Positions 20,425 to 52,680 of a stretch of DNA of 64,000 nt are shown piece by piece. How positions within the stretch are numbered: the first letter of the stretch is position 1; every line of letters starts with the position of its first letter. The DNA comes from a virus (lineage: Duplodnaviria; Heunggongvirae; Uroviricota; Caudoviricetes): the IMG/VR virus record IMGVR_UViG_3300020060_000009; one strand, written 5' to 3'. The notes below the pieces were generated by a model. The model was not told the DNA's origin and did no database searches. It saw only the letters and a list, made by a program, of their open reading frames with translations. The position numbers and the translations under genes are program-made.

Positions 20425-20456
20425 GCTTGTGTTTACGTTGGAAAAGGCGCATAATT
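20425..20456 (+). promoter_or_regulatory. conserved phage promoter (TTGTGT-N17-CATAAT)
   Basis: gcTTGTGTttacgttggaaaaggcgCATAATtc, upstream of the replication operon. Confidence 0.6.
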
Positions 20457-20496
20457 CAAAACACAAGGGGAATCGAAAAACGAGGGTATAACAAAC

Positions 20497-21168
20497 ATGA
20501 ACACATCAATTATTAAAAAGGACTTTTGGAAGTCCGACGAGTATGTAGTATTGCATTTAGATACAAAAATGGTGTATCTTTATTTGCTATCTTGTCCAGA
20601 TAAAGGCTATTTAAATGTTTTTAAATTAAATAAACATCTTGCAACTCTTTGTACGGGTGTATCTAGCAATTCTATAGAAGCTGGGCTTGAACAACTACAA
20701 AAGATGGGCTATATTGATCTATTTAATGGATATGTGGGCTTGTTAAAGGGTCATGTTACAGCAGTTGGTGGACGCTACGGAGGCGAGAATAAAGACAAAG
20801 AACTAGCATCATTACCAGTTGATATTCGTGAGCATTTTGGCTTAGATGATGAGTCTATAATAGATATAGAACCTACTAAAAGAGTAGTTAAAAAAACTGG
20901 CCCACCACCAGAGACAATTAAAAGTATAATCGCTAAACAACCAGAGGCTTTACGCGAGACTCTTCAAGACTTCGTAGAAGACCGTATTGAGCGTAAGAAA
21001 GCCCCAACTACCCGTGCCGTCAAGGGTTGGGTTAAAAAGCTAGAAGATATGTACCCCAAGAACCCAGCTAAACAAGCAATGTGCTTGCAACAATCTATTG
21101 ATCGTGGTTGGATGGGATTATTTGAAGTTAAGATGGATAGTACTACAGGAGGGGGAGAATTTATGTAA
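20497..21168 (+). CDS. replication initiation / replisome organiser protein
   Basis: N-terminal region resembles the phage replisome-organiser / DnaD-like domain. First gene after the origin-like repeats, followed by a helicase. Confidence 0.5.
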   Translation: MNTSIIKKDFWKSDEYVVLHLDTKMVYLYLLSCPDKGYLNVFKLNKHLATLCTGVSSNSIEAGLEQLQKMGYIDLFNGYVGLLKGHVTAVGGRYGGENKDKELASLPVDIREHFGLDDESIIDIEPTKRVVKKTGPPPETIKSIIAKQPEALRETLQDFVEDRIERKKAPTTRAVKGWVKKLEDMYPKNPAKQAMCLQQSIDRGWMGLFEVKMDSTTGGGEFM

Positions 21169-21473
21169 TGACAAGTCTCGTTACTCCAGAATACTGGAAG
21201 ATGTGGCTTGGTGATATGCCGATGCCAGAAGATGCTACTACAGATATGATGTGGGCAGCTCATGATGCAATGCAAGAGTTTGAGGCAAGGGATGAAGACA
21301 TACGAATGATTAATTGGTATGAAGAATCTAAGAAACACTATGTAAAAAAACGTGAGTTCTGGCTTCCACGCACAAATGAACCAGATTATGTTGATAAATT
21401 AAGAATTTACGATAACATATTGGAACAAATTGATGAAGGAATTGAATTTTTAAGGGAGCAATTAAATGGCTGA
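21168..21473 (+). CDS. hypothetical protein (possible helicase loader)
   Basis: 101-aa acidic ORF between the initiator and the helicase, translationally coupled. Confidence 0.4.
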   Translation: MTSLVTPEYWKMWLGDMPMPEDATTDMMWAAHDAMQEFEARDEDIRMINWYEESKKHYVKKREFWLPRTNEPDYVDKLRIYDNILEQIDEGIEFLREQLNG

Positions 21474-22398
21474 GAAAAAAGACTGGAAACAAAAAGCTGT
21501 AAATCGAATTGTTGAGCAGTTCGCCGATATGGATGAGCCTCAACAAGCTAAAGTCATGGATGCTATTAAGTATAACTACGCGCTCCAAGCAGCTAAAGAA
21601 GTCGGTATGACCAAGACTGTTACGTTTGGTGATATGTATGCAACAGCTATCGAGCGCCAAAAACACTTCAATAAGTTCGAGGGCTTTGGTTGCGGTCTCC
21701 CTTACTTCGACCGTGCCACCATGGGCTTTCGTGGTGGTGAGCTGATAATCATTGCAGCGCCTTCTAACTTCGGTAAAACGATGGTAGCTATGAATATTGT
21801 TGCGCAGCTAGCAGCAAATACTCTTAAAAAGGTCGTTATGATTACTATGGAAATGACACCCGCTGAGGTGAGTACTCGTTTGTTCAACATGGTGGATAAA
21901 GCAGATCATGACACACTAAAAGAAAACTTCATTATCCAAACGGAATTAACAGTTAGTGCCGAACACGTAAAAGCGATTGTCAAAAAACATAAACCTGATA
22001 TTCTTTTAATCGACCACTTAGGATTCTTAGCTAAACAAGAACCAGGGACAGAAGAGCGTCAACAGATTGACACAGCTATGGCTAAGATTAAGCGCCTTGC
22101 GATCAATGAGAATATCCCCATCATTATGATTAGTCATGTTAGCAAGACACGTTCTGGCTCAAGTGGCGAGGCGACTGTGTCAGACCTAAAGGGCAGTTCA
22201 GCAATCGAACAAGACTCTGATATTGTCTTCATGATTAACAAGCCAAAAAACCAAAACTTTATGGACCAAGGCATTATAGAGATTGTTTTGAAACTAGAAA
22301 AACATCGTACAAAGTCTCCGAGAGGATTATTTCATCAGAAAGTTTTAATCCAGGTGAAAGGTGTTCGGACTGATGGAAAATACACCGTGTATAATTAA
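21466..22398 (+). CDS. DnaB-like replicative helicase (RecA-fold C-terminal domain only)
   Basis: Walker A IIAAPSNFGKT and a Walker B hydrophobic stretch ILLIDHLGF. 310 aa. Confidence 0.7.
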   Translation: MAEKKDWKQKAVNRIVEQFADMDEPQQAKVMDAIKYNYALQAAKEVGMTKTVTFGDMYATAIERQKHFNKFEGFGCGLPYFDRATMGFRGGELIIIAAPSNFGKTMVAMNIVAQLAANTLKKVVMITMEMTPAEVSTRLFNMVDKADHDTLKENFIIQTELTVSAEHVKAIVKKHKPDILLIDHLGFLAKQEPGTEERQQIDTAMAKIKRLAINENIPIIMISHVSKTRSGSSGEATVSDLKGSSAIEQDSDIVFMINKPKNQNFMDQGIIEIVLKLEKHRTKSPRGLFHQKVLIQVKGVRTDGKYTVYN

Positions 22399-22606
22399 AA
22401 ACATAACCCTCATAGAGGTGACAAATGGAGTTCGCTATACTGGGCCAATAGATATGGAGGGCATGATACTTCACAGTGTTCAGGGTGAAGCGACAACACA
22501 TAGTAATGAACGCAAATATTTTTGCAACAACTGCCTAAAAACATTTAATGGTTCAGAAACATTTGACGAATGTAAAAACCATCTTGGTACATTTCCACTT
22601 GACTGA
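22361..22606 (+). CDS. small zinc-finger protein
   Basis: FCNNCLKTF...ECKNH, a C2HC-like pattern. Confidence 0.35.
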   Translation: MFGLMENTPCIIKNITLIEVTNGVRYTGPIDMEGMILHSVQGEATTHSNERKYFCNNCLKTFNGSETFDECKNHLGTFPLD

Positions 22607-22677
22607 TTAAAATATTATGCTCATACTTAGAGTATGAAACAACCCCAACGAAAAACGCAAAAGTTTATAATTAAAAT

Positions 22678-23319
22678 ATGGAAACAAAAATAGGAATATA
22701 TCAAATAAAAAGAGATGGCACGGTCTTGTACATTGGTCAGTCTAGAAACATAAAAAATAGATGGCTCCAACATAAATATGAACTTAAAAGAAATAAACAT
22801 TGCAATACTTATCTACAATGAATGTACAATAAATATAACGACTTAGAGTTTTCAGTTTTAGAAGATAATATACCCGTCGAAGGGTTGACACCAAAAGAGA
22901 TATTTTATATCAACAAGCTAAAACCTCTTTGTAATATTGCTATACCGAACGGAGACGACAGCTGGACATACACGGAAGATAGAAACAGAAAAGTATCTGT
23001 AGGCAATCTTGGAAAGAAAAAGTCCGCAGAACATGCTCTGCATATAAGTGAAGCAAGAAAAGGTATGAAGCTATCCTATCCCGTGTGGAACAAGGGCAAT
23101 GGTGAATATATGTCGGGAGAAAAAAACTCTTTTTATGGCAAACATCACACACTAGAAGACAGGAAAAGAATATCTGAAACTAAGTCGAAAAGTAAAGTGG
23201 ACATTAAAAAGTTAATTCAATTCAGAAATAGCGGGATGAGCTATGCTGCCGTAGGGAGAGTACTTGGTGTCTCAAGAACCTTTGTAAACAGAAAATATAA
23301 ATTATGGACGGAAAAATAA
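22678..23319 (+). pseudogene. GIY-YIG homing endonuclease interrupted by an in-frame TGA (22819-22821)
   Basis: ATG at 22678 opens ...GIYQIKRDGTVLYIGQSRNIKNRWLQHKYELKRNKHCNTYLQ, then TGA. In the same frame the next ORF continues MYNKYNDLEFSVLE...NKLKPLCN, the rest of the GIY-YIG domain. NUMOD3-like repeats and a C-terminal HTH follow. The frame was checked as (22822-22678) mod 3 = 0. Confidence 0.6.
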
Positions 23320-23681: not shown

Positions 23682-23718
23682 GCTTGTGCTTTTTTTGATA
23701 TAGGAGCATAATTAAAAT

Positions 23719-24492: not shown

Positions 24493-24844
24493 TGGTGGAG
24501 ATGGGGGGAATCGCACCCCCGTGCCAAAAATCCACAATTAGCTTTCTATTACAAGTTTATCCAGTTTCTACTGGCAAAAGACAGTGTGACACCACCACTT
24601 ATTTTTATAGTTCAAATAAGAAACTTGTGCATTGCGTTCGGTATGCTCGTAGTCTTCATTATTGGCCGAAGACCGCCATTCTCTCGATTAAACCAGTGAG
24701 AAAGCTGGTGCTGGAACAAATGCTTGTTTAAACATTGCTACAGCGGATTTGAATGCGTTTGCATTTAGGTTTTGTTGTCTTTGACGCGGACAGGCGACTT
24801 GCTTACTAACTGTTAAAAATTCAAGGTCGAATCTAAGTCATCCC
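24493..24844 (-). ncRNA. ssrA: tmRNA (ssrA), phage-encoded
   Basis: 5' end GGGGATGACTTAGATTCGAC (E. coli has GGGGCUGAUUCUGGAUUCGAC). 3' end GGGGGTGCGATTCCCCCCATCTCCACCA, i.e. T-arm plus an acceptor that pairs with the 5' GGGGATG, plus CCA. About 352 nt. A candidate tag ORF ANAFKSAVAMFKQAFVPAPAFSLV* is only tentative. The overlapping ORFs 24256..24699 and 24492..24731 are therefore spurious. Confidence 0.75.
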
Positions 24845-24887
24845 CATAAATCTATTATACACCAGAGGTAAAATAATTGCAACATAA

Positions 24888-24920
24888 AAAGCTTGTGTTT
24901 TTTTGAAAAAAGGAGCATAA
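24888..24920 (+). promoter_or_regulatory. conserved phage promoter (TTGTGT-N17-CATAAT)
   Basis: aagcTTGTGTttttttgaaaaaaggagCATAATtaaa. Confidence 0.6.
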
Positions 24921-24960
24921 TTAAATTTGATAATAAAGAACACAATAAAAGGGAGCATTA

Positions 24961-27488: not shown

Positions 27489-27785
27489 ATGAATTATATT
27501 GACGAGGTAAAAGAAGAATTAGCAAAGCACATAACCGTTGGTAAGGGGCTTATGAATGTATATGCTCTACTTGTTTTAGTTAAAGGTGAAGAAACGACGC
27601 TAGAGGACGTTCACGACGCTTGGAGTGTTAATATAAACCAAACGTGGAACTTTGCCCAGAACGGTAATCATCGCTCTCTAATCGCGTTTAATGAGCTTGC
27701 TAAAGAGATACAAGAAAAAGACCGTGCTTATGTCGAAGCTATACACGAAACTGCTCGTATTCTGAGAACCAAAAAGAGCCTGTAG
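27489..27785 (+). CDS. hypothetical protein
   Basis: 98-aa ORF. Confidence 0.45.
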   Translation: MNYIDEVKEELAKHITVGKGLMNVYALLVLVKGEETTLEDVHDAWSVNINQTWNFAQNGNHRSLIAFNELAKEIQEKDRAYVEAIHETARILRTKKSL

Positions 27786-27933
27786 GGAGTGTCTGGCGCT
27801 AACCAGTCTTGCCTCAGGCTCGAAACGACTTTCCTGTGACGCCGTATATAAACGCATATACCACAGCTCGTTCTCTTTATACTCTTATTATAGTCTTGCT
27901 AAATTGCTATGTCAAGAGTTTTTTATAATTTCA

Positions 27934-28006
27934 TGGCTCCCTCGCTAGGACTCGCACCCAGATAACAGCCTTCAAAGGGCTGCGTCCTACTTTAGACGAC
28001 GTGGGA
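27934..28006 (-). tRNA. tRNA-Gln (anticodon UUG)
   Basis: Anticodon stem CAGCC/GGCTG with loop CTTTGAA. T-arm CTGGG-TGCGAGT-CCTAG. CCA encoded. Confidence 0.6.
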
Positions 28007-28011
28007 ATATT

Positions 28012-28098
28012 TGGCGGTGACAGTAGGATTCGAACCTACGGGGCTTTTGGCCCACAGCTTTAGCAAAGCTGCTCGATAAACCACTCTGACATATCACC
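28012..28098 (-). tRNA. tRNA-Ser (anticodon GCU), type II
   Basis: T-loop GGTTCGAATCC, long variable arm, anticodon loop TTGCTAA. CCA encoded. Confidence 0.65.
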
Positions 28099-28103
28099 GT
28101 ATT

Positions 28104-28180
28104 TGGCTGGAAAGGTAGGGGTCGAACCTACGAATTTTCTGGTTCAGAGCCAGGTGCCTTGCCTACTTGGCCACTTTCCA
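28104..28180 (-). tRNA. tRNA-Gln (anticodon CUG)
   Basis: Anticodon loop CTCTGAA flanked by CTGG/CCAG. T-loop GGTTCGACCCC. CCA encoded. Confidence 0.6.
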
Positions 28181-28621
28181 TTATTTAAATAAGTTATTAG
28201 CGACTACTACAATAATTGATATTATCGCAACTGCTGCTGCAATCGCACCGTATATTCTACCTACTGTTAGCTGGGAGCCTTTAGCCTTACCATCAGATAT
28301 ATTAATTCTGTCTGTAAGATCGCTTAACTTGCCTTCTAATGCTTTATGCTGAACAGTATATTCCTGCCTTGGCATTAAAGTACTAGATTGGTCTGCTAGT
28401 TGAGCTCTGAACTCATTAACGCTCTCAAATCGTTTCTCAGTAGAAACTTCTGCTTTATTAATAGCTTCTTTTGTTGCAGCTAAAGCAGCAGCTACTGCTT
28501 TCTCTTGCGATACAAGCGCAGCATCTATAGCTTTTTGATTATCTTCAAACCGTTGAGCGACATACTCTTTTAGAGTATCTACTGTCCAACCACTTTCATT
28601 TTTTTGTGTTTCACCTGACAT
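28181..28621 (-). CDS. coiled-coil protein with C-terminal membrane anchor
   Basis: 146 aa with a long Ala/Glu/Lys-rich helical region, then GAIAAAVAIISIIVVV TM. Embedded in the tRNA array. Confidence 0.45.
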   Translation of the reverse strand: MSGETQKNESGWTVDTLKEYVAQRFEDNQKAIDAALVSQEKAVAAALAATKEAINKAEVSTEKRFESVNEFRAQLADQSSTLMPRQEYTVQHKALEGKLSDLTDRINISDGKAKGSQLTVGRIYGAIAAAVAIISIIVVVANNLFK

Positions 28622-28651
28622 ATATACTCTAAGTATATAGGAAAGCTAATT

Positions 28652-28730
28652 TGGGGTGTAGAACGAGAATCGGACTCGCATCTCCTCCTTCACAGGGAGG
28701 CGCTTGCAACCAGTAAGCTACCTACAACAT
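28652..28730 (-). tRNA. tRNA-His (anticodon GUG)
   Basis: Anticodon stem CCTCC/GGAGG with loop CTGTGAA. Extra 5' G(-1) opposite C73, typical of tRNA-His. T-loop TCCGATT. Confidence 0.55.
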
Positions 28731-28733
28731 ATA

Positions 28734-28826
<93 letters not shown>

Positions 28827-28845
28827 TTTGGTGTGCCAGGTGGGA

Positions 28846-29241
28846 CTAATAACCAGTTTTTAAGTAAATTTCTCTACGTTTTTCTGGTGTATAAGCCTTT
28901 CTTCGACACGCTGATTTTGCGTCTCGGCAAGGCTGGCAATGACAACCTCTGTTGTACATTCCAATCTGACCATGATCTGCTAATATTTTCCTTGATGCTG
29001 CGACATTACAAGGCAGGTGGCTATAACCTATATTCTCCAAGTCAAAAAATAATTTGATTGGGTCTTCGCTATCTAACCAAGGTTCCATATGCTCTATAGA
29101 AAATGTTTCTCTATCTAGTGGCTTTTTACACCTGTAGCATACATGACCAGCTTTAACGGCAAAGTCGAATAATAAGTCTTTTAACAGCCGACCATTAGCT
29201 GTGCTAGGATTCATTCCTAGCTGTTCTTTCTTTTTGTCCAT
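28846..29241 (-). CDS. HNH homing endonuclease
   Basis: CYRCKKP...HMEP...N...H motif with flanking Cys pairs (CHCQPC). Lies between tRNA genes. Confidence 0.65.
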   Translation of the reverse strand: MDKKKEQLGMNPSTANGRLLKDLLFDFAVKAGHVCYRCKKPLDRETFSIEHMEPWLDSEDPIKLFFDLENIGYSHLPCNVAASRKILADHGQIGMYNRGCHCQPCRDAKSACRRKAYTPEKRREIYLKTGY

Positions 29242-29319
29242 AACAATCCTCGGATGTTTATTTTGGTTATTAATTTAATTATAACCTTTTCCGATTCTTG
29301 TCAAGGAAATGGTGGCCTC

Positions 29320-29396
29320 AGATGGACTCGAACCATCAGTCCCGAAGGATGGGAGGTTTAAGCTCCCTGCGTGAACCGTTTCGCCATGAAGCCATA
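29320..29396 (-). tRNA. tRNA-Leu (anticodon UAA), type II
   Basis: Anticodon stem GGGAG/CTCCC with plus-strand loop gtttaag. Long variable arm. CCA encoded. Confidence 0.6.
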
Positions 29397-29483
29397 TGGT
29401 GGGTCGTGAGAGACTCGAACTCTCAAGCCCTTGCGGGCAATAGGTTCTAAACCTATCGTGTATACCATTCCACCAACAACCCG
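29397..29483 (-). tRNA. tRNA-Leu (anticodon UAG), type II
   Basis: Acceptor GGGTTGT/ACGACCC. Anticodon stem ATAGG/CCTAT with loop TTTAGAA. Variable arm GCCCGCAAGGGC. T-loop TTCGAGT. Confidence 0.6.
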
Positions 29484-29572
29484 TGTGGTGCGCTTAGCTG
29501 GACTCGAACCAGCATGAGCTCTCGCTCGGACGCTTTTGAAGCGCCTGGGTCTACCTCTTCCCCCATAAACAC
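29484..29572 (-). tRNA. tRNA-Leu (anticodon CAA), type II
   Basis: Anticodon stem GGCGC/GCGTC with loop TTCAAAA. Variable arm GAGCGAGAGCTC. D-loop AGGTAGAC. Confidence 0.55.
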
Positions 29573-29624
29573 ATGTTTGTTAAAGACTCTTGACCATTTT
29601 ACCTGGCATATTTTCTCTTTCTTT

Positions 29625-29698
29625 TGGAGCGCCATACTGGAATCTAACCAGTTTAAACCGCTTTGCAGGCGGACGCGTGGACATTCCGCCAATGACGC
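29625..29698 (-). tRNA. tRNA-Cys (anticodon GCA)
   Basis: Acceptor GCGTCAT/ATGGCGC. Anticodon loop CTGCAAA. T-loop TTAGATT. Confidence 0.6.
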
Positions 29699-29782
29699 AT
29701 ATTTTATCTTGATTCCTCCGCTTATCCTTTAGGGATAGCTTGCTGATGTTTCATTGGGCGCAAGACGCGCGGAAGTTATTTT

Positions 29783-29860
29783 GGTGGCATCGGAAGGTTT
29801 CGCGCCCTCGACCCCCTGTGCTTCAAACAGGTGCTCTAACTATCTGAGCTACAATGCCAT
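29783..29860 (-). tRNA. tRNA-Phe (anticodon GAA) with atypical T-loop
   Basis: Acceptor GGCATTG/CGATGCC. Anticodon stem CCTGT/ACAGG with loop TTGAAGC. T-loop reads CGCGAAA instead of the canonical TTCGAAT. Confidence 0.5.
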
Positions 29861-29865
29861 AATTT

Positions 29866-29942
29866 GGTCGGGATAGTAGGAGTCGAACCTACCGCTTGAG
29901 ACGTCCAAGGTCCCCGTCACGCCTCGCAACTTCACCCCGATA
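29866..29942 (-). tRNA. tRNA-Pro (anticodon UGG)
   Basis: Anticodon stem GGGAC/GTCTC with loop CTTGGAC. T-arm GTAGGTTCGACTCCTAC. Confidence 0.55.
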
Positions 29943-29944
29943 TT

Positions 29945-30030
29945 TATTTGAACTTAGTCGAGATCGTCGGACTTGGACCGACATCGCCAGTCCCCGTGAC
30001 TGGTGTTCTTCTTAAACTATCTCTCGTTAT
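29945..30030 (-). tRNA. tRNA-like element, probable pseudo-tRNA
   Basis: T-arm-like GTCGG-TCCAAGT-CCGAC and a 5-bp anticodon-like stem CCAGT/ACTGG with loop CACGGGG (no U33). No encoded CCA, and two acceptor mismatches. Confidence 0.3.
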
Positions 30031-30031
30031 T

Positions 30032-30108
30032 TGGCTCCCAGTGTTGGAATCGAACCAACCGCCTTGACGTTAACAGCGTCCTGCACTACCGATGTGCTGA
30101 CTGGGAAT
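30032..30108 (-). tRNA. tRNA-Asn (anticodon GUU)
   Basis: Plus-strand T-arm gttggaatcgaaccaac and anticodon stem gacg/cgtc with loop ttaacag. Confidence 0.6.
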
Positions 30109-30204
30109 ATTTAGACACCCCGTGGAACTTGACATCCACATCTTCATCTATGTTACTTTGCTAGCGTTCACATAGGGTTGTTTTCTTTAAACTATGGGGC
30201 ATAT

Positions 30205-30282
30205 TTGGCGGACTGTACGAGACTCGGACTCGTTTCATCTCCGTGACAGGGAGACGTGTTACCCATATACTAACAATCCATA
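30205..30282 (-). tRNA. tRNA-Asp (anticodon GUC)
   Basis: Acceptor GGATTGT/ACAGTCC. Anticodon stem TCTCC/GGAGA with loop CTGTCAC. Confidence 0.6.
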
Positions 30283-30285
30283 TTT

Positions 30286-30362
30286 GGCAGGGAATGTAAG
30301 AATCTAACTCACGCCAAGAGGTTTGGAAGCTCTTGTGCTAACATTACACCAATCCCCTATAT
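30286..30362 (-). tRNA. tRNA-Trp (anticodon CCA)
   Basis: Anticodon loop TTCCAAA. T-loop GTTAGATTC. Acceptor AGGGGAT/ATTCCCT. A C-C mismatch closes the anticodon stem. Confidence 0.5.
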
Positions 30363-30363
30363 T

Positions 30364-30466
30364 TGGTGGAGGACTTTTCGTGGTATCCCCCGTTGAATGT
30401 GACATTTACAGTACACAAGGAACTGTAAACCGTTACTGTCTAGAACAGCACCAAAGTCCGAAGACT
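30364..30466 (-). ncRNA. tRNA-like structured RNA with 3' CCACCA
   Basis: 5' GGACTTT pairs with 3' AAAGTCC-T-CCACCA. Internal 8-bp hairpin TTTACAGT...ACTGTAAA with a 9-nt loop. About 100 nt, no canonical T-arm. Confidence 0.3.
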
Positions 30467-30829
30467 TTATATACATAACCTCGCAGACGGCTAGCTAATC
30501 CAACGTCTGTGACACATTGCAGCCATAGCCTGCTGTGCCTACATGTACATGACCACTCGCTACCCATCCCAGTTTCAGCACGATCAGGGTTTCACTCCCG
30601 CAACCGTCGTACATACTGGGCCAAAGCCTTGTCCGTCGTGTACTTGTATATCTATTATATCTAATTGTTAAATAAAAAGCGACCCTACATTTTTGTGGGT
30701 CGCTCGGAGATATTTTTGTTTTTCTATACTACAGTGAAAAACCTACAGCCCGAGCGCCACTAAAACTATCTGAATTATTCCAGAGTTGCGGTAGTTGATG
30801 CTGACACGATAAGTTCTTCATACTTTTAA

Positions 30830-30872
30830 TTATACACCATTATGAAAATAAACACAAGCGTTTTATTTAGTT
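30830..30872 (-). promoter_or_regulatory. conserved phage promoter on the minus strand driving tRNA array 1
   Basis: Reverse complement reads cgcTTGTGTttattttcataatggtgTATAATtaaaag (TTGTGT-N17-TATAAT), oriented towards the tRNA genes at 30466 down to 27934. Confidence 0.55.
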
Positions 30873-31070: not shown

Positions 31071-31163
31071 GTTTATAGTATACTTGGTCGAGCCAGCGGG
31101 GGATGATCCCGTATCTCCATCTTGAGAGGATGGTGTCCTAACCGATTAGACGAAAGCTCGATA

Positions 31164-31250
31164 TGGTACTGAGGGAGGGATTCGAACCCCCGAAGTCCGA
31201 AGACATCTGGTTTACAGCCAGCTTACTTTAACCACTTGCATACCTCAGCA
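31164..31250 (-). tRNA. tRNA-Tyr (anticodon GUA), type II
   Basis: T-arm GGGGGTTCGAATCCCTCCC, long variable arm. Plus-strand anticodon stem ctgg/ccag with loop tttacag. Confidence 0.6.
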
Positions 31251-31253
31251 TAT

Positions 31254-31327
31254 TTGGTGAACCACGCGAGACTCGAACTCGCTTCTACTCCTTGAAGGGG
31301 AATCGACTTAACCCATGGTCGAGTGGT
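31254..31327 (-). tRNA. tRNA-Glu (anticodon UUC), position 33 = C
   Basis: Acceptor GGACCAC/GTGGTTC. Anticodon stem ATTCC/GGAGT with loop CCTTCAA. T-arm GCGAGTTCGAGTCTCGC. Confidence 0.5.
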
Positions 31328-31486
31328 CCAGATATTAAAAAAATCGCCTATGGGCGACTACAATTTTATGACAAAAGAAGAAGCCCTGTTATAGGTTAGA
31401 TTCTTCCTCGTAATATGTATTACTGTTTATCATATTATCTATTATAGCGTATTCAATTAAATAACACAATAGCTAAAATAAAGCTT

Positions 31487-31518
31487 GTGTTTTTAACCAC
31501 ATAGGCGCATAATTATAA
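31487..31518 (+). promoter_or_regulatory. conserved phage promoter (TTGTGT-N17-CATAAT)
   Basis: aagcTTGTGTttttaaccacataggcgCATAATtat, upstream of 31543. Confidence 0.6.
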
Positions 31519-33014: not shown

Positions 33015-33545
33015 ATGCAGACGATAACCGTCTGTACAGATGCAGGACATAAGAACGCTTGGAAGGACTCAGTATCAATTTGGGCGACGTACATACGAAC
33101 ACCGTCTGAAACTATACATGCTTCCGGAATAATCAAACAAAAAACCAAAGGAAGTTCTCATGCAGAACTATATGCTGTTGCTAATGCGCTTTATATCCTT
33201 AGTAAAAAATATGATTTGAGCAAATACAAATTAATCTTATATTCTGACAATCTGTACGCACTTCAAAACCACAGAGAAGGTACTCTAAAGAAGCGAAAAG
33301 CAGACAACATGAAGGTCTATAATAAATGGATTAAACCACATGTTGATAACGCTTGTGAATTTGAAACTCGACATGTTAAAGGTCACTTACCGAGATCACA
33401 ATGGGGAGCTAACCCAACAAGATTCTATATGCAGTGGTGGTGTGACAATGAAGTACACCGAATAATGAAAATAGGAGTGCAAATAGTATATGAAAAATGG
33501 AAACAAAAAAGGCTTGTGTTATTAGCGAAAAAAGAGCATAATTAA
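33015..33545 (+). CDS. rnh: RNase H
   Basis: ITVCTDAG, SSHAELYAVANALYIL and LILYSDNLYA give the D-E-D catalytic pattern in RNase HI order. The C-terminal residues are encoded by the downstream promoter sequence. Confidence 0.65.
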   Translation: MQTITVCTDAGHKNAWKDSVSIWATYIRTPSETIHASGIIKQKTKGSSHAELYAVANALYILSKKYDLSKYKLILYSDNLYALQNHREGTLKKRKADNMKVYNKWIKPHVDNACEFETRHVKGHLPRSQWGANPTRFYMQWWCDNEVHRIMKIGVQIVYEKWKQKRLVLLAKKEHN

Positions 33546-41113: not shown

Positions 41114-41190
41114 AATTTGGAGGGTCTGATGGGTGCTGCCCCCATGACATTTTGCTTAAAAGGCAAATGCTCTACTGTTGAGCTACAGAC
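41114..41190 (-). tRNA. tRNA-Lys (anticodon UUU)
   Basis: Plus-strand anticodon stem tttgc/gcaaa with loop ttaaaag. T-arm ATGGG-GGCAGCA-CCCAT (unusual T-loop, plus strand reads tgctgcc). CCA encoded. Confidence 0.5.
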
Positions 41191-41344
41191 CCCTACTAAA
41201 AAAGGGACTGATTTGTCCCCTATTATTTTTCATGCTATAAGCTAAAAATAATAGGGCTACAGTTTGGCCTTGCCTCCGCGAATGACCATAGCAGTAGCTT
41301 GCACAATTGGGGTTGTACGCTTCGTCATAACTGCTATTCTTTCA

Positions 41345-41395
41345 CTCATACTTCCATTATACATTATTTATAAAATAAACACAAGCCTTTTTATT
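41345..41395 (-). promoter_or_regulatory. conserved promoter on the minus strand driving tRNA array 2
   Basis: Reverse complement reads ggcTTGTGTttattttataaataatgTATAATggaag (TTGTGT-N17-TATAAT), directed towards the tRNAs at 41190 down to 38874. Confidence 0.55.
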
Positions 41396-41397
41396 TC

Positions 41398-41430
41398 GCT
41401 TGTGTTATTAATGCAAATAGCGCATAATTG
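41398..41430 (+). promoter_or_regulatory. conserved phage promoter (TTGTGT-N17-CATAAT), divergent partner
   Basis: tcgcTTGTGTtattaatgcaaatagcgCATAATtg, upstream of 41438. Confidence 0.55.
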
Positions 41431-41707: not shown

Positions 41708-41740
41708 CGCTTGTGTTTTAAATAAAAAAAGAGCATAATT
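41708..41740 (+). promoter_or_regulatory. conserved phage promoter (TTGTGT-N17-CATAAT)
   Basis: aacgcTTGTGTtttaaataaaaaaagagCATAATtg. Confidence 0.55.
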
Positions 41741-42374: not shown

Positions 42375-42407
42375 GCTTGTGTTTTTAGGAAAAAAAGAGC
42401 ATAATTG
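42375..42407 (+). promoter_or_regulatory. conserved phage promoter (TTGTGT-N17-CATAAT)
   Basis: aacgcTTGTGTttttaggaaaaaaagagCATAATtg. Confidence 0.55.
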
Positions 42408-43524: not shown

Positions 43525-43557
43525 TGCTTGTGTTTTATTGTCTAAAAGAGCATAATT
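43525..43557 (+). promoter_or_regulatory. conserved phage promoter (TTGTGT-N17-CATAAT)
   Basis: atgcTTGTGTtttattgtctaaaagagCATAATtc. Confidence 0.55.
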
Positions 43558-43588
43558 CTCCCCATAAGTAAAAGAGAAAGGCTTATCA

Positions 43589-44089: not shown

Positions 44090-44503
44090 TCATTTTAGGA
44101 GTTCGTATATAGTTTCGTTAGAATAGCCACTATTGTGCAGGTCTATAATATGTTGCACCACGCCGACATTAGCAACTTTGTTTTTTATGTTCGTACCACG
44201 AGAACTCCACCTAAGATTTGAAGCCCTGTTGTCGTGTTTGATTCGATTAATGTGGTCTACCTCTGGTAGATTGTCAGGATTCGATAAGAATGTCTTAGCG
44301 ACTAGTCTATGTACTCTGAACGTAATAAGATTCCGATTAGTATCGTAGAGACTGTGTGTCTGGTATCCAGTGGATCTGTTATTCTTTTTTAATATTCTAT
44401 CAGTCTTTACGTTTCTGACATCCCCCATATTTGACACCTCATAATTTGGGAACCCGTCTATTTTGCGCCATTCTGTTTGTGTTTTCATTTTGTCCCTAAA
44501 CAA
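44090..44503 (-). CDS. HNH_3-type homing endonuclease (NUMOD4 + HNH)
   Basis: NYEVSNMGDVRN (NUMOD4-like) followed by GY...HRLVAKTF...VDHINRIKHDNRASNLRW, the HNH_3 pattern. Confidence 0.7.
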   Translation of the reverse strand: MFRDKMKTQTEWRKIDGFPNYEVSNMGDVRNVKTDRILKKNNRSTGYQTHSLYDTNRNLITFRVHRLVAKTFLSNPDNLPEVDHINRIKHDNRASNLRWSSRGTNIKNKVANVGVVQHIIDLHNSGYSNETIYELLK

Positions 44504-46097: not shown

Positions 46098-46228
46098 TAA
46101 ATCTCCTTATTTTAATGGGAAAAAAATATGTCTCTCGCCACTAAGACATATTTTTCTGTTAATTGTTCTATTCTAATTATACACTGTTATTATCACAAAA
46201 CATAGCTTAAAATTGCGCAACAATGGGC

Positions 46229-46260
46229 TTGTGTTTTTCGTTAAATGAGAGCATAATTAA
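46229..46260 (+). promoter_or_regulatory. conserved phage promoter (TTGTGT-N17-CATAAT)
   Basis: gggcTTGTGTttttcgttaaatgagagCATAATtaaa. Confidence 0.55.
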
Positions 46261-46288
46261 ATTATAAGTTAAGAAAGGCTTAGACAAT

Positions 46289-50477: not shown

Positions 50478-50478
50478 C

Positions 50479-50943: not shown

Positions 50944-50983
50944 GCATTATTTTCTTTTTTTCTATCTTTGCCATACTGGCCTC

Positions 50984-51361
50984 CTAAATGTAGTTAGCTT
51001 TGCTAACAGGAACAAGTTGTACTGTTACTTGTCCGTACTTACATTGGTTAATTAATTTAATGTCGTGGTCAGCAGCATAGTATTGAGCGGTCTTTTGTGA
51101 ACTAGTTTGAGTGTCCCAATAGGTTACTGAAAAATAGTCATCGTTTAATGCTGAGGAAAGTGATTGAGCATGTGCAAAATCTAATATGGAAGTGACCACA
51201 CTAATGTTAGGATATATACCGATAAGTGTTGCCGATATGTTACCGTTCATATCCCTATTCGCATTTTTCCAGAGCTTGCTATATGTCAAAGTATAGTCAT
51301 TGATTTGACTGGTAGACAATGATACGCCATTGATGATAATTAAGGGGTTAGTTACGGCCAT
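50984..51361 (-). CDS. hypothetical structural protein
   Basis: 125-aa ORF. Confidence 0.4.
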   Translation of the reverse strand: MAVTNPLIIINGVSLSTSQINDYTLTYSKLWKNANRDMNGNISATLIGIYPNISVVTSILDFAHAQSLSSALNDDYFSVTYWDTQTSSQKTAQYYAADHDIKLINQCKYGQVTVQLVPVSKANYI

Positions 51362-51544
51362 TTTTTGTTTTTATCTCTGTGACTTATTATAACAGACTGG
51401 TCATTGTTCATCTGGTAGTTAAAGGGGCTCTTACTCCTCTGTTATGGTATAATTAAGGTAATAGATACCTGATTAAATATCTGGTTAAAATAAAAATAAT
51501 AGAAGAGTCTAAATAATCTTAAGACCTACTACGGAGAATAAAAA

Positions 51545-52114
51545 ATGGCATTACCAAACCCAGGAATGGACGCAGTACCGTTCACACCTCTTACTGCTGA
51601 ATTTCTAGATGACATGATAGAAAATATCGAGTTTACTTACAGCGGTCTATCAACTGGTAGCGGTATAGGGTCTGGGACTATTACTAATGCCAAACTATCT
51701 ACTACAGCAGGAGAACCAGGAGCTGCGTGGCAATCTTATACCCCAACATGGACTGCATCTAGTGTAAACCCTACACTTGGTAACGGGACACTCACAGGAG
51801 CCTACAATAAAGTAGGTAAAATGATAACTGCAAGGATATTTTTGCAGTATGGTAGCACAACATCTTCTGGAACAGGGGCATTCCGATGGTCTCTACCTGT
51901 GACGCCAAAATCTAGTACATTCTTTATGGGTTCAGGATGGGGTTTAAGAACTGGTTCAGCCTTTGAAGCTTGGCCCGTATCTAACATAGATACCTTTGGG
52001 GCTGTTCAAGCCTATATTCAACTTGTCAATACTGGTGGTGGAGTCTCTAGCAGTACTCAGAGCTGGACAAACGGCGATAAATTTGTCTTAGAGATAACTT
52101 ACGAATCAGTTTAA
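51545..52114 (+). CDS. Gly/Ser/Thr-rich protein (possible fibre or adhesin-like)
   Basis: 189 aa with low-complexity G/S/T stretches. Plus strand inside the late region. Confidence 0.4.
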   Translation: MALPNPGMDAVPFTPLTAEFLDDMIENIEFTYSGLSTGSGIGSGTITNAKLSTTAGEPGAAWQSYTPTWTASSVNPTLGNGTLTGAYNKVGKMITARIFLQYGSTTSSGTGAFRWSLPVTPKSSTFFMGSGWGLRTGSAFEAWPVSNIDTFGAVQAYIQLVNTGGGVSSSTQSWTNGDKFVLEITYESV

Positions 52115-52680
52115 GAGTTGCTATCCACGTAAGCAAAAGAACCAGTACTCTCTATTTCTTCTATCTGTTTACTTGTTACTTTTTGCAAAAGTGATTCAAA
52201 TAGTTCTTCTATTGAAGATTGATCGCTATTCGTTGTCCACACAAAGAAGGCAAATTTCTTGCCTTCTTTTTCATAGTTTTTACCATATGAGTAAAGAGGA
52301 CTAAGAGTGTTAGAACGGACTAGCGTTCCATTATTAAGATATGGATAACCTCCAGAAAATGTTCTAACATACATATCATCTCTTCTAAGCGCGTGGAAGA
52401 TACCAACTTTATCGTGTTCTGCATATTGTTTCATATACTCATTGTAACAAAATAAGATAAGTTTTGCAAGATTGGGCTTGTGTTTTTGATAAAAAAAGAG
52501 TATAATAGGTCTTATGAAAATGATTAATTCGAAATTTAGCAATATCCTACTATTAGTCCTTATCTCTATCTTAGGAGCTATTGCTATAGTAATAATTATA
52601 TTATCAGTCCATAAATTACAGGCCCCGGCAACCCCAGTAAATAATTCAATTCCAGAAACTAGTAACTGGGAAGACTGCAC
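52111..52680 (-). CDS. hypothetical protein
   Basis: 189-aa ORF; the first ~60 codons overlap a plus-strand promoter and gene, so the true start may be an internal Met. Confidence 0.35.
   Translation of the reverse strand: MQSSQLLVSGIELFTGVAGACNLWTDNIIITIAIAPKIEIRTNSRILLNFELIIFIRPIILFFYQKHKPNLAKLILFCYNEYMKQYAEHDKVGIFHALRRDDMYVRTFSGGYPYLNNGTLVRSNTLSPLYSYGKNYEKEGKKFAFFVWTTNSDQSSIEELFESLLQKVTSKQIEEIESTGSFAYVDSNS
52480..52511 (+). promoter_or_regulatory. conserved phage promoter (TTGTGT-N17-TATAAT)
   Basis: gggcTTGTGTttttgataaaaaaagagTATAATagg. Confidence 0.55.

Follow-up and report, generated by a model that had tools for sequence, protein, structure and literature searches.

An uncultured tailed phage, its genome about 99 kb long, carries a repeated element that is a real family of bacterial-type promoters, and three of its copies stand before short open reading frames (mini-ORFs) whose codons match the tRNA genes that follow. 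From sequence comparison and modelled RNA folds, we consider it probable that these observations belong together, as a primary-sigma promoter family of which some members would feed ribosome-mediated attenuators of tRNA arrays.

The promoter family

The window (the whole 64,000-nt stretch of DNA that was analysed) contains 13 exact matches to TTGTGT-N15-19-ATAAT, every one with a 17-bp spacer, where dinucleotide shuffles give 0.38 expected and 2 at most. A weight-matrix scan of the window returned 13 sites at 38.6-52.7 bits; the top score per shuffle in 20 Markov shuffles of the window was 1.6-17.1 bits. The preliminary description had claimed that the module recurs at least 12 times, and all 12 copies that it listed are present within a few bases of where it placed them: taking the first T of TTGTGT as the coordinate, they lie at 20427, 24893, 31485, 33514, 41400, 41711, 42377, 43528, 46229 and 52478 on the plus strand and at 30857 and 41384 on the minus strand. 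The scan added a thirteenth strong copy, absent from that list, at 23684 on the plus strand (TTGTGC), and three weak ones on the minus strand at 31469 (18.7 bits), 20191 (17.8 bits, TTGCGT) and 46204 (8.0 bits). All sites are confined to 20.1-52.5 kb, the scan finding none elsewhere in the window. Six more copies lie in the same genome beyond the window, and this genome and its relatives together hold 51 distinct sites. The module reads A-rich–GC–TTGTGT–TTT–N–AAAaGnG–[C/T]ATAAT–T, and the predicted promoters of the window are as follows.

20163..20193, minus: weak copy (TTGCGT-17-TATAAT) fronting a 20-kb leftward gene cluster
20425..20455, plus: copy (GC-TTGTGT-17-CATAAT) that would drive a DnaD/O-like initiator and DnaB helicase operon; ortholog in a related phage (L003)
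23682..23712, plus: TTGTGC variant; ATG of a 153-aa gene 6 nt past the -10 (leaderless type)
24891..24921, plus: copy back-to-back with the tmRNA promoter
24882-24854, minus: tmRNA promoter TTGCAA-17-TATAAT, opposite the preceding copy
30829..30859, minus: copy P30857 (gtgTATAAT) that would start leader ORF L1b
31441..31471, minus: weak copy P31469 (TA replaces GC; TTGTGT-17-TATAAT) that would start leader ORF L1a; back-to-back with P31485
31483..31513, plus: copy (P31485) that would drive a HIRAN/PD-(D/E)XK nuclease operon
33512..33542, plus: copy within the 3' end of the preceding gene that would drive a vWA-like gene (33579-34613)
41356..41386, minus: copy P41384 (atgTATAAT) that would start leader ORF L2; one half of a divergent pair
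41398..41428, plus: copy with the ATG of an 88-aa gene 9 nt past the -10
41709..41739, plus: copy found by exact match and weight matrix
42375..42405, plus: top-scoring copy, followed by a conserved 5'-UTR hairpin
43526..43556, plus: copy with a terminator hairpin upstream and a conserved AUAAGU..GAAAGGCUUA leader
46176-46206, minus: weak copy, back-to-back with the next
46227..46257, plus: copy with the conserved AUAAGU..GAAAGGCUUA leader
52476..52506, plus: copy (TATAAT) with the ATG of a 112-aa gene 7 nt past the -10

The earlier claim that conservation extends past the two hexamers is borne out by per-position counts over the 13 strong copies. GC immediately precedes TTGTGT in 12, T fills positions +7 to +9 of the module in 10, spacer position 16 is A in all 13, G stands at -15 in 11 and at -13 in 12, the first base of the -10 is C in nine and T in four, and a T follows the -10 in 10. 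The cassette thus runs from an A-tract (-45 to -39), which occupies the position of a proximal UP element, through GC (-37/-36), the -35 TTGTGT, a T-tract, a second A-tract and G-15/G-13 to the -10 [C/T]ATAAT and T-6; TTGTGT agrees with the canonical -35 at three of six positions only. All 16 sites are oriented toward the next gene or tRNA on their own strand, and 14 are wholly intergenic. The module is kept in about eight related metagenomic phages in which flanks and spacer diverge, identity in ortholog alignments being 78% within the module and 55% upstream of it. At 11 of the 51 family sites an ATG lies 5-9 nt past the -10 (by our own estimate, two or three would do so by chance), which fits a transcription start about 7 nt downstream of the -10 and suggests that about one in five cassettes may start a leaderless mRNA. 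A terminator hairpin precedes six of the 51 copies; before the copy at 43526..43556 its stem sequence is different in all five orthologs. The reading of these elements as promoters is well supported by their bipartite form with a fixed 17-bp spacer, their gene-directed orientation, the block conservation among orthologs, the position of the ATG and the A-tract. The divergent pair proposed at 41345-41430 also holds, at 41356-41428, and there is a second back-to-back pair at 31441-31513.

We give almost no credence to the idea that the repeats are mobile or recombination cassettes, or other non-promoter repeats, with no role in transcription. It would explain why only a 66-81-nt promoter-leader piece of the copy at 46229 aligns to the window in three other contigs (L019, L020 and L021), but the copies are strictly oriented with genes, conservation is bipartite with a free spacer, and the ATG is located at the predicted +1. 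Exchange and promoter function can, moreover, coexist: the promoter-stem-loop (PeSL) elements of phage T4 combine the two.

The polymerase that reads the cassettes

The module has primary-sigma architecture (TTG, 17-bp spacer, nATAAT, upstream A-tract), and the roughly 82 kb that were read of the 99-kb genome (window plus flanks) revealed no family of sigma factors, anti-sigma factors, RNA polymerases, MotA or AsiA-like proteins. Perfect TTGACA-17/18-TATAAT promoters also occur in this genome and are conserved in relatives in their own right, so that selection maintains both -35 types. On these sequence grounds the host RNA polymerase holoenzyme is the likeliest reader of the module, which would serve this novel tailed phage as its main early/middle promoter: a sigma-70/SigA-type cassette with transcription starting about 7 nt past the -10, placed at the head of replication, recombination and host-interaction operons and of the tRNA arrays. 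Host polymerase alone does not account for how strictly GC, TGT and GnG are conserved, and these invariant positions probably add a second layer of specificity, for example a regulator or a modification of RNA polymerase or of the DNA.

The preliminary description had gone further and suggested recognition by a phage-modified RNA polymerase or a dedicated factor. In such a reading the module would require a phage-made specificity factor, through MotA/AsiA-like appropriation of sigma, Alt-like modification of RNA polymerase (both as in T4) or an activator at GCTTGTGTTT, and its copies would form a middle class that comes into play following transcription from a few canonical TTGACA promoters. 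We regard such a requirement as possible but unlikely. GC, TGT, the T-tract and GnG are indeed invariant across the lineage despite diverging spacers and flanks, the selection on both -35 types fits a second promoter class, and the GCT..AGC span forms an imperfect dyad (7/10 by our own reading). However, TTG, the 17-bp spacer and the near-consensus -10 are what a primary sigma requires, the factor families named above were not found in the sequence read, and the module heads clusters of small ORFs that resemble earliest genes. The middle promoters of T4 have their box at -30, with 12 bp between it and the -10, and do not keep the TTG.

The same conserved flanks might instead be an operator, with host polymerase reading the promoters and a dimeric phage or host repressor on GCT-N20-AGC shutting the regulon late. 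The pseudo-dyad between GCTTGTGTTT and AAAaAaGaGC and the absence of the module from late structural and lysis genes are in keeping with this, but the half-sites lack covariation, their symmetry is mostly T-tract opposite A-tract, and no helix-turn-helix regulator was identified except the replication initiator. We judge a repressor distinctly improbable.

The closest parallels to the promoter family are the early promoters and mobile PeSL cassettes of T4 and the early promoters of T5, where a virulent phage likewise carries host-polymerase promoters by the dozen, all nearly identical. Like those of T4 and T5, the cassettes here have a consensus that begins at an upstream A-tract and runs through to the start site, depart from the host -35 and stand at the heads of early gene clusters; also in common with them, some copies lie behind a terminator hairpin and copies are shared by otherwise unrelated genes. 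They differ in the -35 itself (TTGTGT with a GC prefix rather than GTTTAC or TTGCTT), in the GnG upstream of a CATAAT -10, and in the predicted one fifth of copies that start leaderless mRNAs. Unlike in T4, there is no sign of an Alt-like modifier in the 82 kb read.

Leader ORFs and tRNA arrays

The two minus-strand copies first reported were said to sit exactly at the heads of the two tRNA arrays. This is essentially right, except that the copy at 30857 lies between a Glu/Tyr/Glu sub-array (31085-31329) and the remaining tRNAs, the true head of the first array being served by the weaker copy at 31469. At each of these three copies an ATG 6-7 nt past the -10 opens a predicted leaderless mini-ORF, followed by a predicted antiterminator/terminator pair and then the array. 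All the features are on the minus strand.

31389..31433, minus: leaderless mini-ORF L1a, MINSNTYYEEESNL then stop; TAT TAC GAG GAA GAA correspond to Tyr(gta), Glu(ctc) and Glu(ttc) downstream
31337..31357, minus: predicted intrinsic terminator of L1a (UCGCC/GGCGA + U7)
31085..31329, minus: tRNA array 1a, Glu(ttc), Tyr(gta), Glu(ctc)
30729..30821, minus: leaderless mini-ORF L1b, MKNLSCQHQLPQLWNNSDSFSGARAVGFSL then stop; codons 3-20 read by 13 of 14 tRNA species of the array
30674..30703, minus: predicted intrinsic terminator of L1b (GCGACCCACA..UGUAGGGUCGC + U5)
27934..30358, minus: tRNA array 1b, with two ORFs inside; Trp, Asp, Asn, Pro(cgg), Pro(tgg), Phe, Cys, Leu x3, Ser(tga), His, Gln(ctg), Ser(gct), Gln(ttg)
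41257..41349, minus: leaderless mini-ORF L2, MSERIAVMTKRTTPIVQATAMVIRGGKAKL then stop; samples all 10 tRNA species of array 2
41198..41256, minus: predicted attenuator L2; antiterminator hairpin CCCUAUUAUUUUU/AAAAAUAAUAGGG directly after the stop codon
38874..41192, minus: tRNA array 2, Lys(ttt), Ile(gat), Thr, Gly, Arg-like(ct), Ile(tat), Val, Met, Arg(acg), Lys-like(tt), Ala, Lys(ctt)

The codons of the mini-ORFs match 3/3 (L1a), 13/14 (L1b) and 10/10 (L2) of the tRNA species downstream. With all windows of equal length from the coding sequences of the phage itself as the null, none of 13,310 windows reaches L1b in decodable codons (21 of 29), in longest run (10) or in tRNAs covered (13/14) under strict wobble rules, the run growing to 19 if U34 reads four-fold boxes. 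The complete coverage of L2 is equalled by 8 of 13,310 windows, and the run of five cognate codons in L1a by none of 14,670. In L2, 6 of the 29 codons have no cognate tRNA in the array, and in L1a the same holds for the codons at either end. The match extends to isoacceptors (CAG+CAA, TTA+CTA, TCR+AGT, AAA+AAG, ATT+ATA, GAG+GAA) and had predictive value: the W of the L1b leader called for a tRNA-Trp, and relaxed ARAGORN subsequently located one at 30285-30358, while the leader codons CCG and AGA were matched by Pro(cgg) and Arg-like tRNAs found later.

In the predicted folds, each of the eight leaders examined, here and in other phages, combines a U-run terminator with a second way for the terminator's 5' arm to pair, and in all eight this alternative pairing is lost once the ORF plus 13 nt are masked. 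The L1a antiterminator uses the stop-codon region (CCUAU..GGGC), codons 21-24 of L1b (30749-30760) are the 5' arm of its antiterminator, and that of L2 overlaps the terminator (A)GGGGAC/GUCCC(UU) + U-run, whose stem is short at 5-7 bp. For L1b the unconstrained minimum-energy fold is the terminator, the antiterminator appearing only in co-transcriptional (truncated) folds; about 315 nt of unassigned sequence separate its terminator from tRNA-Trp, with a possible weak promoter, TCGCTT-17-TATAAT, inside.

The arrangement recurs elsewhere. Orthologs of L2 in two related phages (L005 and L133) preserve the layout with stems that differ in sequence, and across them the antiterminator is 97% paired with three compensatory pairs, against 54-67% in slid controls, a comparison of three sequences that 42 of 500 shuffles reach. 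An unrelated phage contig of independent lineage (L138) has three arrays and three leaderless mini-ORFs covering 4/4, 7/7 and 11/12 tRNAs (p = 0.05, 0.004 and 0.002, each leader having been chosen among 2-5 small ORFs, guided by the -10). The cultured mycobacteriophage Myrna has TACAGT, 7 nt, ATG, then MFALLSLSSSLRLS and a stop, a hairpin and tRNAs Ser, Ser, Leu, Leu, Leu; its leader contains 11 Leu/Ser, which 0 of 9,713 13-residue windows match. By our own arithmetic, a Fisher combination of the coverage p-values of six leaders gives about 1e-9. In the mycobacteriophage Bongo we found no comparable leader, so the design is not universal.

Bongo, together with the shortness of the ORFs and the possible choice among small ORFs, is what speaks for coincidence, in which the mini-ORFs would be chance or array-unrelated micropeptides and the hairpins ordinary terminators or processing sites. 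We strongly disfavour this reading: ORF composition follows its own array in seven independent cases from three lineages while the peptide sequences are unrelated between cases, and it accounts neither for the isoacceptor-level matching nor for the correct prediction of the missing tRNA-Trp.

A model of tRNA-array attenuation

As to where transcripts start, whether the mini-ORFs are translated, whether transcription terminates and in which direction regulation runs, we infer the following scheme. The transcript at the three tRNA-array copies would begin with a leaderless mini-ORF of 14-30 codons acting as a codon sampler, with cognate codons for essentially every downstream tRNA species. In the terminator that separates the ORF from the first tRNA, the 5' arm could pair instead with an antiterminator segment, formed by the last ORF codons or lying just past the stop codon. 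Were a sampled tRNA scarce, the ribosome would stall early, the antiterminator would form and RNA polymerase would read into the array; were all available, a ribosome at the stop codon would mask the antiterminator arm, and the terminator would form and keep the array off. In this way the phage would adjust how much tRNA it makes to demand, for instance on depletion or cleavage of the host's tRNAs. We found no description in the literature of ribosome-mediated attenuators of tRNA arrays; if true, this would be an undescribed viral means to sense and adjust its own tRNA supply.

The mini-ORFs might also act on the arrays with the opposite sign or by another route, the ribosome shielding RNA from Rho or a hairpin, or the codon tract pairing with tRNA anticodons in a T-box-like manner. 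Untranslated tRNA arrays would be open to Rho, and the sign of regulation is read from folding alone. We nevertheless think this very unlikely: in each of the eight leaders it is the terminating, not the stalled, ribosome that would sit on the arm in competition with the terminator; the window yielded no T-box or any other riboswitch family; 13 different successive codons cannot be one specifier; and the ATG at +1 and the in-frame stops are conserved across lineages.

The closest parallels to the proposed attenuators are the leader peptides of the amino-acid operons trp, his, thr and ilvGMEDA (the last 'multivalent') and of pheST. As there, a short ORF is rich in the codons whose decoding would be sensed, an intrinsic terminator lies ahead of the regulated genes, and ribosome position is proposed to decide between mutually exclusive antiterminator and terminator; L1b shares the classical four-segment layout. 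In contrast, the regulated products are tRNAs rather than biosynthetic enzymes, the ORF is leaderless and phage-encoded, and its codons call on as many as 13 different tRNA species, most of them one or two times, whereas the classical leaders have a run of codons for just one or two amino acids. The sensed quantity is probably tRNA supply, not amino-acid supply.

In mycobacteria, leaderless poly-Cys short ORFs attenuate operons of a 'ribulon', sensing cysteine and controlling translation by unmasking a ribosome-binding site (bioRxiv 10.1101/834739). The leaders described here are similar in that a sensory short ORF begins at the transcription start and a stalled ribosome would alter downstream RNA structure, and one case, Myrna, shares the actinobacterial setting, but the phage leaders sample many codons and lead into a terminator that stands before non-coding tRNA genes. 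T-box riboswitches likewise tie the state of a particular tRNA to terminator read-through before translation-related genes, yet they bind tRNA directly without translation, through a conserved Stem I and T-box sequence, whereas the leaders here are ORFs.

The promoter module in the window and across its lineage

The preliminary description had proposed at least 12 copies of a recurring promoter module, a number that our searches bear out. The pattern TTGTGT-N15-19-ATAAT matches 13 times in the window, with a spacer of 17 bp every time, against an average of 0.38 in dinucleotide shuffles. A weight-matrix scan of the window also returned 13 sites, at 38.6-52.7 bits (per-shuffle maxima in 20 Markov shuffles were 1.6-17.1 bits), which include all 12 copies described earlier together with a strong one at 23684+ that reads TTGTGC (copies are named by the coordinate of the first T of TTGTGT and the strand). 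The same scan gave weak copies at 31469-, 20191- and 46204-, and no scoring site in the window beyond 20.1-52.5 kb. Alignment of the copies likewise upholds the claim that conservation extends well past both sigma-70 hexamers. An A-rich stretch lies upstream, GC immediately precedes TTGTGT in 12 of the 13 copies and a T-tract follows it, the 3′ half of the spacer is an A-tract with A at spacer position 16 in all 13, and G at -15, G at -13 and the T after the -10 are conserved. The first base of the -10 is C in nine copies and T in four, C being a departure from consensus. The interpretation as promoters was right in kind: at each of the 16 sites the next feature downstream, a gene or tRNA, is on the same strand and 0-214 nt away.

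Six further copies lie just outside the window in the same genome, five of them within a small-ORF cluster. An exact-pattern scan of viral contigs found multi-copy matches in seven contigs whose identity to the window is ~70%, and one additional relative with the module was reached via its endolysin. The lineage total is 51 distinct sites, with the consensus aA.Aaaa.GCTTGTGTTTTt....AAAaAaGaGCATAATT. In five orthologous groups identity is 78% within the module versus 55% in the 60 nt upstream, the blocks GCTTGTGTTT and GAGCATAAT being near-invariant and the spacer free. At 11 of the 51 sites (we estimate 2-3 by chance), leader-ORF sites among them, an ORF-opening ATG stands 5-9 nt after the -10, and three of these ATGs start window genes of 88-153 codons. 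A terminator hairpin precedes six of the 51 sites, and AGAAAGGCTTA occurs in 15 of the 51 cassettes across the lineage, with no enrichment within the window alone. At 15 of the 51 sites a common 5′ UTR, AUAAGU..GAAAGGCUUA, of the form AUAAGU-N5-9-(A)AGAAAGGCUUA-N2-6-AUG, precedes the start codons of unrelated genes.

Shared AUAAGU 5′ UTR attached to module copies
43557-43588, in the window
46258-46288, in the window
13 sites in relatives

In three of the contigs compared with the window (L019, L020 and L021), the promoter-leader piece is the sole DNA alignable to it, which suggests that regulatory cassettes are exchanged. For this uncultured group of phages the promoter family supplies a map of transcription and serves as a lineage signature, which is useful but ordinary; the putative attenuators that it serves at the tRNA arrays matter more.

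Leader ORFs and putative attenuators at the tRNA arrays

Whether phage tRNA arrays serve codon compensation or replace tRNAs destroyed by defence systems is a long-standing question and, to our knowledge, nothing is known of how their expression is controlled. At module copies 31469-, 30857- and 41384-, an ATG 6-7 nt past the -10 opens a short ORF, followed by a hairpin with a U-run and then by tRNAs. These leaderless mini-ORFs are called L1a, L1b and L2, after arrays 1a, 1b and 2.

Leader peptides in the window and their downstream tRNAs
L1a, from copy 31469-: MINSNTYYEEESNL; Glu(ttc), Tyr(gta), Glu(ctc)
L1b, from copy 30857-: MKNLSCQHQLPQLWNNSDSFSGARAVGFSL; Trp, Asp, Asn, Pro, Phe, Cys, Leu x3, Ser x2, His, Gln x2
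L2, from copy 41384-: MSERIAVMTKRTTPIVQATAMVIRGGKAKL; Lys, Ile, Thr, Gly, Ile, Val, Met, Arg, Ala, Lys

The leader codons cover 3/3 (L1a), 13/14 (L1b) and 10/10 (L2) of the downstream tRNA species, and the match reaches the isoacceptor level (CAG and CAA, TTA and CTA, TCR and AGT). The W in L1b pointed to a tRNA-Trp missed by default ARAGORN, which a relaxed search located at 30285-30358; this search also gave Pro(cgg), matching a CCG codon, and an Arg-like tRNA, matching AGA. All stretches of equal length from the phage's own coding sequences served as controls for each leader. Under a strict wobble rule, the cognate-codon count, longest run and 13/14 coverage of L1b were each reached by 0 of 13,310 such stretches; the 10/10 coverage of L2 was reached by eight of 13,310, and the run of five cognate codons in L1a by none of 14,670. 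With the five genes beyond the default ARAGORN assignments, the window holds 30 tRNAs.

tRNAs missed or left unassigned by default ARAGORN
39355-39429, minus strand
40402-40472, minus strand
41121-41192, minus strand
29957-30026, minus strand
30285-30358, minus strand

These five comprise two with six-base anticodon loops (tt and ct; Lys- and Arg-like), a Lys(ttt) with an aberrant T-loop, Pro(cgg) and Trp(cca). Such altered anticodon loops are reminiscent of how T5 is reported to escape anticodon nucleases (PMC10264068).

Comparable leaders occur in other phages. L138, an unrelated phage contig of 59 kb, has no TTGTGT promoters; it carries three tRNA arrays, each with its own leader, and the leader promoters read TTTACT-17-TATAAT or TAACAT, then 6 nt and ATG.

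Leader peptides of L138 and their arrays
Tyr and Leu x3: MISKVSSLLLSSYYLIFGVGVPYNS (CTA TTA TTG .. TAT TAC)
Thr, Gly x2, Glu x2, Gln x2: MSKVEQGTGTEATQAWGQFLIA
Trp, Pro, Lys x2, Ile x2, Val, Arg, Phe, His, Asn, Asp: MAKSWHIIPKNVKRFDNPTEGVF

Coverage of tRNA species is 4/4 (p = 0.05), 7/7 (p = 0.004) and 11/12 (p = 0.002), respectively, and the best match of each of the larger leaders is its own array. A further case lies in Mycobacterium phage Myrna, directly upstream of the tRNA cluster.

Leader of Myrna
NC_011273.1 32375-32464: unannotated leaderless mini-ORF MFALLSLSSSLRLS*, with a predicted transcription start at A32398, and GC hairpin near 32445-32462

The Myrna sequence runs TACAGT, 7 nt, ATG TTC GCA CTC CTG AGT TTG TCA TCC TCC CTA CGA CTT TCG TAG, and the mini-ORF is followed by the GC hairpin, which has no U-run, and then by tRNAs Ser, Ser, Leu, Leu and Leu. 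Eleven of its 13 residues are Leu or Ser, the maximum elsewhere being seven (13-residue windows over 10,376 residues of Myrna ORFs). The tRNA region of Bongo (cluster M) held no convincing leader ORF, contig L137 had no tRNAs, and blastn of array 2 against phage records matched single tRNAs only.

In leader-peptide attenuation, a codon-enriched short ORF and an intrinsic terminator precede the regulated genes, a competing antiterminator shares bases with the terminator and is covered by the ribosome at the stop codon, and read-through follows the decoding speed of the leader codons. Codon enrichment is seen in the coverage counts for the window and L138 and in the Leu/Ser content of the Myrna leader. 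A hairpin with U4-U7 is present in 8/8 leaders folded, and in the same 8/8 an antiterminator is predicted that shares terminator bases and would lie under a ribosome at the stop codon. For L2, a predicted 13-bp hairpin (CCCUAUUAUUUUU/AAAAAUAAUAGGG) begins with the first base beyond the stop codon and has GGG in common with the terminator, which is predicted to form 7 bp when the antiterminator arm is masked, as by a ribosome at the stop codon, and 4 bp otherwise. In nascent-RNA folds of L1b, codons 21-24 (UGGCGCUCGGGC) are predicted to pair with the terminator 5′ arm, while the untranslated leader would fold on itself and leave the terminator intact; this predicted layout is the four-segment arrangement of classical attenuators. 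The terminator loop and 5′ arm of L1a are predicted to pair with the stop-codon region. For each of the three L138 leaders a terminator is predicted, along with a G-rich antiterminator arm supplied by the 3′ end of the ORF.

The L2 orthologs in two of the compared contigs, L005 and L133, keep the logic of the peptide (MTKTAITTRKRTTTVAGIAMVIGGKAKL and MVNAATTKVARTAIAADFVVVTTAMRGGKAKQ) and retain both hairpins in different sequences. Across the three phages, pairing of the predicted L2 antiterminator reaches 97% and includes three compensatory pairs; slid registers give 54-67%. Scans of viral and metagenome contigs with the end of the L2 leader returned only the L005 phage. A T-box riboswitch, which has a Stem I specifier loop and a conserved T-box sequence, was also considered as the sensor and rejected: when the whole window was scanned with Rfam at its gathering thresholds, only tRNAs and one tmRNA matched.

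The simplest reading of the leaders is ribosome-mediated attenuation, for which we infer the regulatory sign, transcription start, translation and termination. Were any one of the sampled codons decoded slowly, the antiterminator would stay free and the array would be transcribed; fast decoding would carry the ribosome to the stop codon, letting the terminator form and switching the array off. On this reading only slowed decoding would induce the array, for example when host defences cleave tRNAs. Since each leader ORF enumerates the anticodons of its array, the phage would be measuring the decoding of exactly those codons and responding to it, and the module copies at the arrays appear to be launching sensors of tRNA supply. 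With moderate confidence, we favour the view that these elements are a new, overlooked class of phage sensor-actuator, present in at least three lineages including that of Myrna, in which a leaderless, anticodon-listing ORF gates each array via an antiterminator and terminator. If real, they extend leader-peptide attenuation to non-coding RNA genes and amount to a multi-analyte sensor that samples 10-13 tRNA species within 30 codons, a design that could be turned into a synthetic reporter for the availability of tRNAs; a cultured system in which to test it exists in Myrna on Mycobacterium smegmatis. Our full-text literature search turned up neither leader ORFs described at tRNA arrays nor a phage promoter of the TTGTGT type, and the nearest published case is that of the leaderless poly-Cys sensory ORFs of mycobacteria (bioRxiv 10.1101/834739).

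Candidate readers of the promoter and the host

Promoters of the primary sigma factor (sigma-70/SigA) have the form TTGnnn, 17 ± 1 bp, TAnnnT, with a start 6-8 nt after the -10, and require host holoenzyme. All 13 strong copies, 23684+ with its TTGTGC included, have the -35, exactly 17 bp and [C/T]ATAAT; the TTG, the spacing, the nATAAT and an A-tract at the proximal UP-element position are features of primary-sigma holoenzyme promoters. The preliminary description had proposed a phage-modified RNA polymerase or a dedicated factor. We looked for such a factor with Pfam and PHROGs, run on the concatenated products of the genes at 20.5-53 kb, and in precomputed tables that cover the flanks. In the ~82 kb examined of 99 kb, neither a sigma or anti-sigma factor nor an RNA polymerase or MotA/AsiA-like family turned up. 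In a T4 middle promoter a MotA box, (a/t)(a/t)(a/t)TGCTTtA, is centred at -30 and lies 11-13 bp from the -10, and the phage has MotA and AsiA genes; we rejected this type, as the conserved block here lies at -37 to -27, the spacer is 17 bp and neither protein has a like PHROG or Pfam match. Phage sigma factors such as SPO1 gp28 and gp33/34 are encoded by the phage and use promoters with both hexamers unlike those of the host; this too was rejected on a host-type -10 and the lack of a Sigma70_r2/r4 match in the window or flanks (~82 kb). Single-subunit and virion polymerases recognise one contiguous block of ~20 bp or a hairpin and come with a phage RNA polymerase gene. A T7-like or virion enzyme was dismissed on the two-block layout of the module, with its free spacer, and on the lack of any RNA polymerase family among the large proteins.

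The sequence features make the host polymerase the most economical reader. The invariant GC, TGT and GnG nonetheless argue for an added layer of specificity; a special polymerase or factor may be involved. The genome also carries promoters of other types.

Other sigma-70-like promoters
27915, minus strand: perfect TTGACA-17-TATAAT, before a candidate small RNA of ~100 nt
1311-1340, minus strand: perfect TTGACA-18-TATAAT, in the 20-kb leftward cluster, kept in the relative L013
24882-24854, minus strand: TTGCAA-17-TATAAT, the tmRNA promoter, back-to-back with copy 24893+
two sites in the genome: TTGCTT-17-TAMAAT

Because both perfect TTGACA promoters stay TTGACA in relatives, the -35 difference between the promoter types is, to judge from this comparison, kept by selection and not drift. 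The closest precedents are the early promoters of T4 and T5; those of T4 have their own extended consensus, a deviant -35 and mobile cassettes.

The window is part of a metagenome contig of 99,020 bp that exists in two assemblies broken at different points; the G+C is ~40%. Megablast of 7 kb against 50,697 phage records gave no match. Protein relatives are distant, being actinobacteriophages for the RNA ligase, endolysin and vWA-like protein; the tail protein had no relative in protein searches, and one endolysin homolog is located in a MAG labelled Sulfuriferula.

Layout of the window
1-20 kb, minus strand: RNA ligase, polynucleotide kinase/phosphatase, CCA-adding enzyme, glycosyltransferases, DNA polymerase exonuclease subunit
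20.5-47 kb: replication, recombination and small genes, two tRNA arrays (minus strand), tmRNA
47-64 kb, minus strand: holin, CHAP+VanY endolysin, tail genes, tape measure

Three features suggest a host of actinobacterial type or epibionts of such a host: the actinobacteriophage homologs, a holin of r1t type and the frequency of leaderless starts. The G+C is low, unusual for Actinomycetota. A search of 185,579 genomes for GCTTGTGTT-N13-GNGCATAAT gave 102 loci. Candidatus Saccharibacteria MAGs account for 79 of them, and no other bacterial group is enriched for the phage motif. All 79 represent one orthologous promoter, upstream of tRNA genes in some lineages or of a Mur ligase gene, which reads GCTTGTGTTT(T)-N-GGTGCATAAT with both blocks conserved and a diverging spacer, and is followed by a conserved hairpin-forming 5′ segment (GCUGGUACGC..). 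No second site scored in 588 kb of these loci, where other promoters are of TTGAGA, TTGCAC or TTGCAA type; in the saccharibacterium Southlakia epibionticum, the tuf promoter that has served in experiments reads TTTACA-17-TATAAT. At positions not specified in the search the saccharibacterial sites score between random matches and phage sites, a modest resemblance. Given a single orthologous site, an ordinary -35 elsewhere and this modest resemblance, a Saccharibacteria host is a lead only.

A TET/JBP dioxygenase and several glycosyltransferases are encoded, from which the phage DNA is probably hypermodified.

Putative DNA-modification genes
L028 (flanking sequence of the same genome) 11525-13130, beyond the window's left end: TET/JBP dioxygenase adjoining a TET-associated glycosyltransferase
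11873-12337, window: glycosyltransferase
13406-14440, window: glycosyltransferase
16389-17939, window: glycosyltransferase

No C5-methyltransferase was seen in 82 kb. Both conserved promoter GC dinucleotides are GpC, the context favoured by phage C5-methyltransferases (PMC8256090), and TTGTGT has two TG steps, TG being the context of one phage T-dioxygenase (PMC13229309). A secondary, weaker proposal has the TTGTGT/GC consensus adapted to phage DNA with TET/JBP-glycosyl modification, or else to a host of the Saccharibacteria type.

Other elements of the genome

A phage-encoded tmRNA, missed by default ARAGORN, lies at 24493-24845 on the minus strand (Rfam RF00023, 86 bits), and in our reading its tag apparently ends ..PAPAFSLV. 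At 27775-27915 (minus strand), right after the last tRNA, the perfect TTGACA promoter is followed by ~100 nt and a GAGCCUG..CAGGCUC+U5 terminator, an arrangement that marks a candidate small RNA, convergent with the plus-strand operon; its promoter and start region are conserved in the relative L003 (10774-), with a fold z-score of only -2. Between the L1b terminator and tRNA-Trp, ~315 nt (30360-30673, minus strand) are without a convincing ORF, and Rfam at E <= 1 gave no match in 30340-30720; a possible weak promoter, TCGCTT-17-TATAAT, overlaps the terminator. The array-embedded 146-aa protein had no relatives in viral contigs.

CTGTTATAMT, a TGn and -10 without a -35, precedes several genes of the minus strand that have no TTGTGT module. 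It may represent a late or extended -10 promoter class, but is not statistically enriched in the window (19 versus 13.5 expected).

CTGTTATAMT sites
38853, minus strand
45660, minus strand
51386, minus strand
L025 ~1340 and ~1633

A promoter-like pair, TATTGCTTTTTT-N10-TCGTAMAATAGTA, is found at 8484-8520 and 11562-11598 (both minus strand), the only two occurrences of TATTGCTTTTTT. Three genes are homing-endonuclease-like.

Homing-endonuclease-like genes
22822-23319, plus strand: GIY-YIG/NUMOD3
28846-29241, minus strand: HNH, within tRNA array 1b
44090-44503, minus strand: HNH/NUMOD4

Finally, a 360-bp intergenic region at 20137-20497 adjoins a DnaD/O-like initiator gene and holds direct repeats (TAGCGTAAGGGTTA twice, runs of AAGAATAAGAATA) together with a TTGACA-17-TAGCAT site, and may act as a replication origin or encode a small RNA.
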